Below are positions 40,902 through 44,307 of a stretch of 45,744 nt of DNA, in pieces. Where the stretch lies: IMG/VR virus record IMGVR_UViG_2671180921_000030, positions 1-45,744 of that record, one strand, 5' to 3'. The translations under genes were made by a program, and so were the position numbers. Each line of letters begins with the position of its first letter. Position 1 is the stretch's first letter. The notes below the pieces were generated by a model. That model worked only from the letters and a program-made list of their open reading frames with translations, had not been told where the DNA came from and did not search any database. The stretch comes from a virus. Lineage: Duplodnaviria; Heunggongvirae; Uroviricota; Caudoviricetes.

Positions 40902-41578
40902 GCAAATACACCGAACTAATCACGAACTACCACGCCACCAAACCTAAATTTCTTGCGCATGTTGATCTGATGACCCGGCCACTTATTGATGTTGCGGCTG
41001 CCACCAGAGGGCTGATTACTGCATTTGATATTGACTCTGCGGTTGGTGTGCAACTTGACATTCTGGGATTGTGGATCGGACGTAGCCGTGTTGTCAGCCA
41101 GCCTATCTCAGGTGTCTATTTCAGCTGGGATACCGACGGGCTTGGATATGATCAGGGGGTATGGCAGGGGCCATATGATCCTGATTCTGGATACATGTAT
41201 CTCAGCGATGAAACTTATCGTGTCATTCTTAAAGCGAAGATTGCGATTAATAACTGGGACGGACGGAATGATTCGCTTCCGGCAATTCTTGACGCGGCAA
41301 CAGCAGGATCCGGGCTGCGAATGCAGATTGTCGATAACCAGGACATGACGATATCGGTCTGGGTCTTTCCTGATACTGATATTTCAGATGTATCGCGTGA
41401 GTTAATTGCGGCAATTAAACAGGGGTATCTAACAGTAAAAGCCGCCGGGGTATGGGCGGGGGGCATTGAAACACCTTCGGTGGAAACTCCATCGGAAGGC
41501 TCTAAATTTTTTGGTTTTGATATGGATAACGAATTCATCAGTGGTTTTGATGTAGGGGCATGGGGAGTATTACTCTGA
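40898..41578 (+). CDS. Baseplate/tail protein (gpI-like)
   Basis: 226-aa ORF between J-like and tail fibre genes. Confidence 0.55.
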   Translation: MSKYTELITNYHATKPKFLAHVDLMTRPLIDVAAATRGLITAFDIDSAVGVQLDILGLWIGRSRVVSQPISGVYFSWDTDGLGYDQGVWQGPYDPDSGYMYLSDETYRVILKAKIAINNWDGRNDSLPAILDAATAGSGLRMQIVDNQDMTISVWVFPDTDISDVSRELIAAIKQGYLTVKAAGVWAGGIETPSVETPSEGSKFFGFDMDNEFISGFDVGAWGVLL

Positions 41579-42726
41579 TGGCAAAAAATGACTTTAAAGC
41601 GTTTGCAACTGATCGAAATGCCAATGTTATGTCGCAGGAGGAATGGGAAGCGTTGCCTGCGCTTATATCCGGATTTACAGCAGGGAAAGCATCCAGTGCG
41701 CAAGTCAATAAGGTTATTCGGCAGGCCAGCTTTATTGCTGCAGCTCTGGCCCAGTTTGTAAGTGATAAAACGCAACGGGATGTGCTTGATAATGGTGATC
41801 TGCCCGGTTTTGTTGAATTGCTGGGATCGGGGTTTGCTGTTGAATACCTGAGCCGCAAGAATCCGTTTGGCGATATCAAATCGGATGGCACGGTGAAAAC
41901 GGCTCTCGAAAACCTGGGAATGACAGACATTCTGAATGATAAACAGGATAAAAATGATAATCTGACATCATTGTCGAGCTTAACAGGAATACCGGATGGG
42001 CTGGCATTTTTTACAGGTGCTGGAACAATGGATATGACAGCGCTGACTCAAAATGGTAGGGAAATTTTAAGTAAAAAAAACGTATCGGAAACTCTACAAT
42101 ATTTAACACTGGGTGACGGCACAGGGCGTTTACTTGGGGTACAGGTATTCGGTACTTCGGGGATGTATTACAAATCGCCAGGCGTAAAAAAAATAATTGT
42201 TGAAGCTATAGGTGGTGGTGGTGCCAGTGGCAATTTATCAGCAACAGCCTCAAATAACTGTGGCATTAGCGCAGCTGGTTCTCCTGGAGCCTACGGAAAG
42301 GCTTTTTATTATCAGGATATTCCTGAATCTGTACCTGTAACGATTGGCGCCGGTGGTGTGGGCGGTGCGGGTCCTGGTGGTTCAGGTGGTGATGGCGGTC
42401 AGACAAGTTTTGGTTCATTACTCGTTTGTCCGGGCGGCAAAGGCTCACAACAACGTCAGCAGGTTCCTCCGTTCTCAGGTGGCAGTGCCGCCGAAGCTTC
42501 ACCACCAACAGGGGCCGGACTTCTGTTTCACTCTGTTTCTCGCTCCCCGTCATGTGCAGCTTTTGGTCTTGGTGATGATATGGCTGTCGGACTCGAAAGC
42601 ACAGTTTCGACCATGATTGGCGTTTATGGAAAAGGCGGAACGGGTAAATACGGTCCGGCAAACAGTGCAGCGTCCAGAGGTGATGACGGTTCTCAGGGTT
42701 ATATTATTGTGTGGGAGTATCAGTAA
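41578..42726 (+). CDS. Tail fibre protein
   Basis: Trimmed to MAKNDFKAF with TGATG overlap; conserved fibre motif [30 protein letters not shown]; Gly-rich C-terminus. Confidence 0.75.
   Translation: [382 protein letters not shown]
41903..41928. promoter_or_regulatory. Tentative left recombination site for the invertase
   Basis: CTCTCGAAAACC-TG-GGAATGACAGAC shares the CTCTCnnAAACC half-site with 43659..43684; cores differ and the conserved halves are in the same orientation, so the call is weak. Confidence 0.2.
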
Positions 42727-42932
42727 TGAGCAATATTTATGCAGTCGTACAAAATGGTGTTGTCGTCAATATCGCCGTGTGGGATGGCGAATCTGAATGG
42801 AATCCATCGGATGGCGTTGCTGTACTGGCTGAAGAAGGTGTTGGTGTGGGCTGGTCATATGACGGTAAAAAGTTCATTAAACCAGCCTCAAAACCAGATG
42901 CCGTTATACCTCCGGGGGAACAGGCCAGTTAA
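42726..42932 (+). CDS. Small tail fibre assembly/chaperone-like protein
   Basis: 68-aa ORF starting at a TAATG overlap with the fibre stop. Confidence 0.4.
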   Translation: MSNIYAVVQNGVVVNIAVWDGESEWNPSDGVAVLAEEGVGVGWSYDGKKFIKPASKPDAVIPPGEQAS

Positions 42933-43326
42933 CATGCTCAGGGTCGGTTGTCACATCAACCGACTTAACCTCGTTCTTATATGCCAGCGACGCCGACAGT
43001 TTCGCTCTGTTGGCGTCGCTGATTTCACCCAGCATCAGTTCTGTTCGCCAGTCCAGCATAGTGGCATCCGCGTGGGCCAGCAGTTGCTGGCGAACTTGCT
43101 CAGCAGCAGCAATCGGCTCCTCACGCGTCGGCGGTGGAATATCAATCCAGACAGGCATATTTTGGCTGGAACTTAGCTGTTTGCCTTCAGGTGGTGCAAA
43201 GTTATATTCATTTCTGACGCTATCGGAAACCTCTATAACATCAGATGGTAATGAACCATTGGTAAGGTATTCTTCTTTCATCTCGATGGGATAAAAACCC
43301 AGGGTGCTTGGCGAAAATAAATACAT
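42904..43326 (-). CDS. Tail fibre assembly protein (Tfa-like), inverted cassette
   Basis: 140-aa minus-strand ORF with Tfa-like C-terminus; directly downstream of the minus-strand fibre C-terminal cassette. Confidence 0.6.
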   Translation of the reverse strand: MYLFSPSTLGFYPIEMKEEYLTNGSLPSDVIEVSDSVRNEYNFAPPEGKQLSSSQNMPVWIDIPPPTREEPIAAAEQVRQQLLAHADATMLDWRTELMLGEISDANRAKLSASLAYKNEVKSVDVTTDPEHVNWPVPPEV

Positions 43327-43328
43327 GG

Positions 43329-43667
43329 TTATTTCCCTATGGCAATAAAGTATGAAGAATTCATTCCACCAATATTGTATTTAGCAAAAAATCGGGTCAG
43401 GTCATTGACGTCACGTTGTATTGATGGAAATTGTTGTGATTGAGAGGCAGGCGTTGACATTAAAACGCCTGGCACAATAGCAATAACGCTACTCGGAAAT
43501 GGTATCGGGAAATTGATATATAGCCCGTTAGAATCAAAAGATGCCTCGAAAGCCTGAATAACATATCCACTCGGCAACTTAAACCACCCGCCACCAGACT
43601 GAAAACTACTCATATCAGGGATTAGGTTATGTCCCGTTCCTACATCCCGTTTCGCCGCCTCTCCCAA
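43329..43667 (-). CDS. Alternative tail fibre C-terminal cassette lacking its own N-terminus
   Basis: Minus-strand frame opens right after an in-frame TGA inside the candidate crossover site; no promoter or SD; followed by Tfa-like gene. Confidence 0.5.
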   Translation of the reverse strand: MGEAAKRDVGTGHNLIPDMSSFQSGGGWFKLPSGYVIQAFEASFDSNGLYINFPIPFPSSVIAIVPGVLMSTPASQSQQFPSIQRDVNDLTRFFAKYNIGGMNSSYFIAIGK

Positions 43668-43684
43668 ACCAACCTTTCAAATAT
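43659..43684. promoter_or_regulatory. Candidate Hin/Gin/Pin-type crossover site
   Basis: CTCTCCCAAACC-AA-CCTTTCAAATAT, about 16/26 matches to the hixL-like consensus as I recall it; the cassette reading frame opens within it; about 60 nt upstream of the invertase. Confidence 0.35.
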
Positions 43685-43743
43685 TTTTCTGAATCAGGTG
43701 ATATTTCGCCTCTTCTCCTGTTTTTACAACAGGAGAAGCACTC

Positions 43744-44307
43744 ATGATTTACGGGTATGTTCGTGTATCAACAAATCATCAGGATACAGAGTTGCAACGT
43801 CTTGCACTTGAGTCAGCTGGCTGTGAGCGAATTTATGAAGAATATGCCAGTGGCAGAACAGCTAATCGCCCTGTGTTAAAGGAATTAATTACGGTGATGA
43901 AAAGTGGAGATGAGTTGATTGTCTGGAAGTTAGATCGGATAGGGAGAAATGTGCTGCATGCGCTATTGATGTTTCAAAATCTGCACGAAAAAGGTATTAA
44001 TTTTCGGAGTATTACAGATGGCGTAGACCTGAAAACAGCTAGTGGTCGCTATAATTTCCGTAATATTCTTTCTGCTGCGCAGTATGAATCTGATTTGAAT
44101 AGCGAGCGAACTTTAGCTGGTTTGGCTATTGCCAGATCCAAAGGCCGGATTGGTGGGCGTAGACCGAAGTTTAGCGACGAGCAGTGGCAACAGATGGGAG
44201 CGCTCATAGCGGCAGGGAAATCACGGCGTTATGTTGCACGTATCTATAACGTTGGGCTATCAACCCTATATAAACGATTTCCTGTTACTGGCATTCAAAC
44301 GAAATAA
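43744..44307 (+). CDS. pin: Serine recombinase, DNA invertase (Pin/Gin/Hin family)
   Basis: N-terminal catalytic motif YVRVSTNHQDTELQR, resolvase core VWKLDRIGRN, C-terminal HTH. Confidence 0.85.
   Translation: MIYGYVRVSTNHQDTELQRLALESAGCERIYEEYASGRTANRPVLKELITVMKSGDELIVWKLDRIGRNVLHALLMFQNLHEKGINFRSITDGVDLKTASGRYNFRNILSAAQYESDLNSERTLAGLAIARSKGRIGGRRPKFSDEQWQQMGALIAAGKSRRYVARIYNVGLSTLYKRFPVTGIQTK

Follow-up and report, generated by a model that had tools for sequence, protein, structure and literature searches.

The final genes of a prophage in Escherichia coli, at its pphA end, form a tail-fibre locus that is very probably a Pin/Gin-type invertible host-range switch, now locked. The prophage lies in a stretch of 45,744 nucleotides (IMG/VR virus record IMGVR_UViG_2671180921_000030, Caudoviricetes; hereafter the window) of E. 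coli chromosome, at the right end of which (44310..45744) the pphA-yebW region is found with 99.6% identity. Related prophages adjoin pphA in 224 of 5,426 complete E. coli genomes. The locus has the parts by which an invertible fibre switch is recognised, namely a constant 5' part of the fibre gene and two opposed 3' cassettes, each with a helper gene, next to an invertase. Such a switch also works through two inverted 26-bp sites with matching cores, and here the left site keeps its outer half only. The original prediction, made from the letters of the window, had spoken of a possible host-range switch and left open whether it was active, locked or decayed. A former switch it was, but it is probably not a working one now; the replacement of the left site and the lack of a flipped form in the collections searched point to a locked state. 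It would be locked and not decayed, because the silent cassette, its Tfa gene and the invertase are all intact.

Gene families were assigned by Pfam, with concordant results from PHROGs (Table 1). The original prediction had correctly placed the fibre gene, the small gene behind it, the minus-strand cassette with its Tfa gene, and the invertase, and each of the five has family support. The layout likened there to the Mu G and P1 C segments is also present in all its parts: a split fibre gene, opposed cassettes with helper genes, and an adjoining invertase. The expressed fibre is built from a constant N-terminus (residues 1-113), a fibre-repeat stretch of 67 amino acids (aa) and a glycine-rich C-terminal domain, and its start at ATG 41578 agrees with that annotated in the relative L001 (E. 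coli 2824; related loci carry L numbers throughout). The match to phrog_11303 (tail fibre) is restricted to fibre residues 1-118. Homologues of the small gene stand directly after a glycine-rich fibre in L002, L003 and L016, and this constant companion of the glycine-rich tip may act as its cognate assembly factor.

The left crossover site is where the window departs from its relatives. The remnant occupies the exact position of the left site (pixL) in the relatives' fibre genes, which at the homologous place read CTCTCGAAAACC TT GGTTTGGGAGAA (L001, L003, L004, e14 and phage SKA5); written out, the complete intact left site is CTCTCGAAAACCTTGGTTTGGGAGAA. In the window the outer half CTCTCGAAAACC is kept, while all of the inner half and the second base of the core have been exchanged, giving TG GGAATGACAGAC. 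The core required on this side is TT, the complement of the AA in the right site, so that TG amounts to one core mismatch. Among the relatives with a readable left site, every one with an intact inner half has kept the TT core. The core forms positions 2-3 of codon Leu113, and a cassette joined here would be in frame, reading ...TALENLGLGEAAKRD... in a fusion of 226 aa. This segment had been put forward in the original prediction as a possible partner of the right site. The shared half-site and the in-frame fusion stand, and the position is the homologous one for pixL, but with its inner half and one core base replaced it is very probably not a functional site. The core difference, described there as TG versus AA, is a real mismatch, although the proper comparison is TG with TT and the difference is one base only. 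That the conserved halves are not inverted is no defect at all, since functional left sites carry the same outer half in the same orientation. The inverted copy that is needed consists of the core and inner half, which is precisely the part gone from the window's left site.

A half-site weight matrix was built from 37 distinct half-sites of 49 loci (median score of these half-sites of relatives, 13.1 bits). On this scale the left outer half scores 13.1 bits and the right inner half 16.8 bits. The remnant left inner half agrees with the consensus at 7 of 12 positions and scores 4.2 bits, and the right outer half, which is functional in related loci, scores 3.6 bits. For the invertase Hin, a single base change in one hix core blocks inverted ligation and confines ligation to the parental arrangement (PMC4817059), and in e14 the removal of one repeat abolishes inversion (PMC12529663).

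A systematic inverted-repeat search had been suggested with the original prediction. Over 41400..43900 a generic search returned short chance pairs only, none of them between the fibre gene and the right site; the left remnant was recognised by homology to the relatives' left sites. A 13-nt pair at 41771/43642 was rejected as a site, as it reflects protein homology (QRDV / KRDV). No second partner within the window was accepted with the right-site pattern at up to three mismatches, and two matches of the half-site scan, at 24270 and 32421, were rejected for their wrong core and their distance of 11-19 kb. The inner arm TTGGTTTGGGAGAR gave 11 matches in the window against 8.2 expected, the only exact one being the right site itself.

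For the right site the situation is simpler, and the Hin-like 26-bp site proposed from the letters alone is borne out. The right-site pattern matches the window once, where shuffled sequence would give 0.00 matches. The ATG of the invertase follows 85 bp downstream of the site, an arrangement shared by some 60 related loci from E. coli genomes and IMG/VR, and the alignment of the site with e14 pixR and with the invertase-adjoining sites of these loci is base for base. The suggested comparison with pix-type sites thus ends in a match to e14 pixR, with which the inner half agrees at 11 of 12 positions. Experiments have identified the repeats TTGGTTTGGGAGAAGG and CCTTCTCCCAAACCAA of e14 as inversion points (PMC12529663). 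Judged by these alignments, 43659..43684 is a true pixR-type crossover site and not a chance match.

The records searched hold the window's arrangement in one orientation. The exact 382-aa fibre is present on 28 public contigs and the Tfa protein, exact or with one residue different, on 66 (21 + 45). The gene order and orientation of the window recur in all 16 of the lineage's displayed loci, and nine of the lineage loci, compared base by base, show 0-1 differences over 2,730 nt. Among the strains concerned, GCA_016997975.1 is without a difference from the window, and GCA_028605065.1 and GCA_030006215.1 have one each. None of 15 billion proteins corresponds to the predicted flipped fusion; its best full-length homologue is 69% identical. 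A 602-nt chimeric query for the flipped right junction had no spanning match in the 5,426 complete E. coli genomes, and exact-pattern scans for the flipped junction found none in IMG/VR, GTDB representatives or metagenomes. Eight matches to a relaxed pattern were rejected as chance, having no homology to the locus. The original prediction had named the lack of an inverted-repeat partner, together with a lack of reads in the alternative orientation, as grounds against a switch; in the window's lineage that orientation is missing from every collection searched. Both orientations do occur in the sister loci L001 and L030, which serve as a positive control. Of 562 E. coli records, 33% have the e14 segment inverted (PMC12529663); at that rate the probability of finding 0 of 28 flipped would be about 1e-5, a figure that is weakened by the near-clonality of the lineage.

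Many contigs in drafts of this lineage (L117..L120 and L127..L130) have their start within the fibre gene near 41839..41887, or 146-377 nt upstream. These starts fall in a region common to other prophages, and the contigs run on without interruption through the segment to pphA. The pattern is that of breaks caused by repeats during assembly and does not suggest inversion heterogeneity.

Serine invertases of the Gin/Cin/Pin/Hin (Din) class are about 185-195 aa long, with an N-terminal resolvase domain that carries the nucleophilic Ser9/10 and a C-terminal helix-turn-helix domain. The enzyme of the window belongs to this class. Ser9 (in YVRVST) and the WKLDRxGR motif (WKLDRIGR) are conserved, Mu Gin is the closest relative with a solved structure (3UJ3, E 8e-57, residues 1-181), and the sole amino-acid change compared with 25 near-identical invertases is V85I, with Ile also found in Gin. 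Sequence comparison suggests that the invertase is intact. Over the 635 nt that run from the right core to the stop codon of the invertase there are 3 differences from L001 and L030. A 1,833-bp segment, 97.8% identical between these two loci, is oriented one way in L001 and the other way in L030, with its ends exactly at the cores, which implies that this invertase, its upstream region and any enhancer at the 5' end support inversion when both sites are intact. The invertase genes of the Din class carry, in their 5' part, a Fis-dependent recombinational enhancer some 100 bp away from the neighbouring crossover site. A simple and noisy Fis-motif scan of the window gave no clear conserved pair at 48-bp spacing, and the first 250 nt of the invertase gene are identical to those of L001 and L030. 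Because the right side and the invertase differ at only 3 of 635 nt from inverting loci, the defect would be confined to the left site.

Table 1. Features of the tail-fibre locus, in positions of the window.
Feature	Position	Strand	Support or sequence
Tail-fibre gene, 382 aa, expressed copy	41578..42726	+	Pfam Gly_rich_2, E 3.7e-6, residues 200-374
68-bp block encoding 23 residues	41851..41918	+	Common to otherwise different phage backbones
Left crossover-site remnant	41903..41928	+	CTCTCGAAAACC TG GGAATGACAGAC
Putative imported fibre C-terminal module (glycine-rich tip and most of small gene)	41919..42883	+	Homology to invertase-less prophages
Small gene, 68 aa, ATG at 42726	42726..42932	+	phrog_14370, residues 1-57 of 68
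Tfa tail-fibre assembly chaperone, 140 aa	42904..43326	-	Caudo_TAP 1e-26, full length; phrog_188
Silent gp53-like fibre C-terminal cassette, no ATG	43329..43667	-	Gp53-like_C 1.1e-7
Right crossover site, pixR type, intact	43659..43684	+	CTCTCCCAAACC AA CCTTTCAAATAT
Serine DNA invertase, 187 aa	43744..44307	+	Resolvase 5e-36 and HTH_7 5e-12; phrog_125 DNA invertase 8e-73

How the left site came to be replaced can be read from the mosaic boundaries of the locus. The backbone of L001 is 97-98% identical to the window up to 41918 and 98-99% identical from 43660, the divergence being confined exactly between the two cores, and both L001 sites are intact (CTCTCGAAAACC TT GGTTTGGGAGAA and TTCTCCCAAACC AA CCTTTGAAATAT). 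The segment 41851..42883, on the other hand, is 91% identical to L002, an E. coli LHM10-1 prophage without invertase, and 77-91% identical to 12 IMG/VR contigs. The TG GGAATGACAGAC junction also occurs in L002 and in these 12 contigs. The tail backbone of L002 differs from that of the window, being Mu-like/YmfQ, and behind the small gene of L002 come a terminator and an acyltransferase gene. The window is homologous to L002, L003 and the 12 IMG/VR loci from 41851 onwards, and to L001 as far as 41918; the 68-bp block between these positions is likely to be the left joint of a module replacement. At the other end, the last ~11 aa of the small gene are unlike L002 and are not covered by the phrog_14370 profile; here the small gene and the 3' end of Tfa share 29 nt. 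This 3' end was considered as the scar of a former forward tfa and set aside as suggestive only, its likeness to L001 and e14 being largely forced by the conserved C-terminus of the opposing Tfa on the other strand. In L003 the glycine-rich tip and small gene stand behind an intact left site and form a true invertible cassette, whereas the glycine-rich tip of the window has its extra 67-aa fibre-repeat stretch exactly where the inner half-site belongs. The same left-site defect is found in L009 and L016 (IMG/VR), paired there with an e14-type pin and pixR.

From the gene identities, the site homologies, these boundaries and the absence of flipped forms, we infer the following order of events and biochemical block. 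The ancestor would have had a constant fibre N-terminus, a left site, two opposed cassettes of tip and helper, a right site and the invertase, an arrangement of a type that persists in sister prophages. Homologous recombination in the 68-bp block would then have imported the glycine-rich tip and its companion gene from an invertase-less phage type, displacing the forward cassette. The left joint would lie in that block just before the crossover point, and the right joint at the 3' end of the small gene, in its last ~11 codons, abutting the point where the opposing Tfa stops. With the import, the left inner half-site would have been overwritten and the core changed from TT to TG. As a result, the left side would now offer the invertase dimer one good half-site at best. 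Even after synapsis and cutting, the 2-nt overhangs would be unable to pair in the inverted arrangement, and ligation would restore the parental orientation only, because TG in place of TT leaves one mismatch in each recombinant joint. The phage would make the glycine-rich fibre only, and the gp53-like cassette, Tfa and invertase would be carried intact without use in cis. Their lack of decay fits a recent locking event.

Other genes have been seen next to the glycine-rich tip. In L016 (2658..4150; IMG/VR, same pphA site) the small gene is separated from a decayed Tfa by an acyltransferase-like gene that is split over two frames and whose tandem repeat encodes STVDSRQ. An intact acyltransferase is found at the equivalent place in L002 (5067..6086). 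The acyltransferase may be O-antigen-modifying cargo that accompanies the glycine-rich tip.

The silent half of the locus has close counterparts. The cassette and Tfa pair is 92-93% identical to the expressed fibre end of L018, a P2-like prophage of E. coli E7476, and to the silent copy in L019, also P2-like; the Tfa gene alone has 91% nucleotide identity to those of both. Compared with L018/L019, synonymous and non-synonymous codon changes number 15:7 in the cassette and 23:10 in Tfa. The frame of the cassette is closed by a TGA two codons outside the right site. A promoter and terminator scan of 42650..44450 returned 2 promoter-like sites against 3.3 expected and no terminators, with no sign of a promoter belonging to the cassette.

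An overlap of exactly 29 nt between the convergent helper genes is seen in the window (42904..42932), in L001 (4289..4317) and in L020 (e14; 3518..3546), and likewise in L018 (P2-like; 3736..3764) and L109 (SKA5; 4870..4898). The conserved WP.PP motif at the C-terminus of Tfa lies in this overlap, and its DNA is read on both strands.

Several observations weigh against a locked switch. The remnant inner half-site scores no worse than the functional right outer half (4.2 and 3.6 bits). Because the right outer half is equally weak yet functional, half-site weakness alone is not proof of inactivity, and we would regard the core mismatch, and not the half-site score, as decisive. The lineage is nearly clonal (0-1 differences), which makes its contigs non-independent samples, and the evidence on orientation comes from contigs and proteins and not from raw reads, so that rare flipped molecules could escape it. 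The cassette, Tfa and invertase are without decay, which fits recent locking but would fit continued use as well. Finally, Cin is reported to use quasi-sites at low frequency, with local conversion of mismatched cores, in work of Iida and Hiestand-Nauer (1986, 1987) as cited by PMC4134206.

The intact enzyme could also be explained if the invertase is kept for action in trans on the segments of other prophages, with the local cassette as a passenger. This explanation would supplement a locked switch without replacing it, and we consider it rather unlikely. The invertase and its upstream region are near-identical to those of active relatives, the exact invertase protein is found on 72 contigs in several prophage contexts, and the right inner half-site is close to that of e14 pixR, as noted above. 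Action in trans is moreover documented for Pin-family invertases, such as PinQ on e14 (PMC12529663) and in EC958 Phi4 (PMC4134206). However, nothing in the window indicates a second target, and the intactness is equally explained by the youth of the lineage.

It is very unlikely that the switch still works on rare occasions, with the remnant left site serving as a quasi-site, the core mismatch tolerated or repaired, and rare phages bearing the gp53-like tip. The perfect left outer half-site, the partial consensus of the inner half and the frame of the fusion are all compatible with this, as is the use of quasi-sites by Cin in the work that PMC4134206 cites. The cassette, Tfa and invertase are also intact, and the codon changes given above indicate divergence under purifying selection. 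Against it stand the 28 fibre and 66 Tfa contigs with no flipped form among them or in any other collection searched, the block that one core mismatch imposes on Hin, and the TT core of every readable relative with an intact inner half. A broader reading is quite unlikely. Here the remnant quasi-site would give rare gp53-tipped virions, the 68-bp block and core would act as a universal splice point, and orphan invertases would be available in trans. Such a splice point may let DUF2612-type, Mu-like/YmfQ-type and e14 backbones trade tips, sometimes killing the switch. That the minus-strand cassette is an unrelated gene remnant, as the original prediction had admitted, and both sites are chance matches has next to no probability: although no inverted repeat linking the fibre gene with the right site came out of the generic search, the cassette and Tfa are 92% identical to an expressed and a silent pair in invertase-bearing P2-like prophages, the right site is conserved in ~60 loci, and the left remnant sits at the homologous pixL position.

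The P segment of e14 in K-12 (stfP-tfaP / tfaE-stfE / pinE) has the gene order of the window, the same 68-bp block before the site and the same 29-nt overlap of convergent helper genes, and its left outer half, right inner half and core are essentially those of the window. Its sites are CTCTCGAAAACC TT GGTTTGGGAGAA and TTCTCCCAAACC AA CGTTTATGAAAA. It differs in its right outer half-site, in an invertase (PinE) to which that of the window is only ~56% identical, and in having the left inner repeat where the window has none and a TG core. In the e14-like L016 the stfE-type cassette has a start codon outside the segment, unlike the silent cassette of the window. The Mu G/Gin and P1 C/Cin systems follow the same plan of a constant N-terminus, a site inside the fibre gene and opposed cassettes of tip and assembly genes, and their invertase lies immediately outside the right site, as in the window. 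The window invertase is ~53% identical to Cin of P1, the only one of these two enzymes measured. The Mu core is TC/GA, in contrast to TT/AA in the window's family, and the forward cassette of the window has a glycine-rich tip with a 68-aa companion gene where Mu and P1 have a Tfa/U-type chaperone. Both phages have intact sites and switch, whereas the left site of the window is defective.

Closer to the window are SKA5, L001, L003 (CFSAN061769) and L004 (APEC E19057), which have invertases 99-99.5% identical to its own and the same right site and upstream region; their left sites, unlike that of the window, are intact with a TT core. The DUF2612 / baseplate J tail backbone of the window is also that of L001 and L004, and L004 is at the same pphA insertion site. 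The EC958 prophages use the same class of 26-bp site for an invertase-driven swap of in-frame fibre C-termini (PMC4134206). Theirs is the reverse of the present case: a truncated invertase was served in trans, the sites were intact and ~50% of reads were inverted (PMC4134206), while the window has a defective site and an intact enzyme.

Damage of other kinds is seen in related loci. In L004 (2450..4870) an IS200/IS605 element (tnpA and TnpB) lies inside the silent Tfa gene. L005 of E. coli CE0021a (5454..6002) has an invertase with an internal stop and a left site with an unusual inner half, CTCTCGAAAACC TT GGAATATCCAAT. These two are other routes of damage to the same switch in sister prophages. 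In L011 (4290..5774) and L012 (3820..5248), both from IMG/VR, and in the E. coli matches H9 and H10, the glycine-rich module is followed after ~240 nt by the last ~46 nt of the invertase and the DNA downstream (window 44262..44442). These loci apparently lack the silent cassette, the right site and most of the invertase, and from their sequences they look like a further stage of loss.

Outside the switch, an overlapping pair of plus-strand genes (37386..38159 and 38156..38536; 257 and 126 aa) lies between the tail genes and the spike gene and has no match in Pfam or PADLOC. In sister prophages with an identical fibre, this slot holds other genes, of 354 and 241 aa. The variable slot may carry accessory or defence cargo.

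With respect to mechanism there is nothing new in this locus, which is a disabled case of the e14 P / Mu G / P1 C family. Gin/Cin/Pin switches and orphan Pin invertases are already well described, and the case will not come as a surprise to the specialist. What it shows is the loss of a programmed host-range switch without decay of the enzyme, through a single modular exchange of the expressed fibre tip that was joined at the crossover point and erased half of one recombination site. In annotation and in the prediction of phage host range, an invertase beside an inverted fibre cassette is no proof of a working switch, and the core dinucleotide and inner half-sites need to be checked when such loci are annotated. 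The locus is of use as this caution and as an example of how fibre tips are shuffled at the crossover point.

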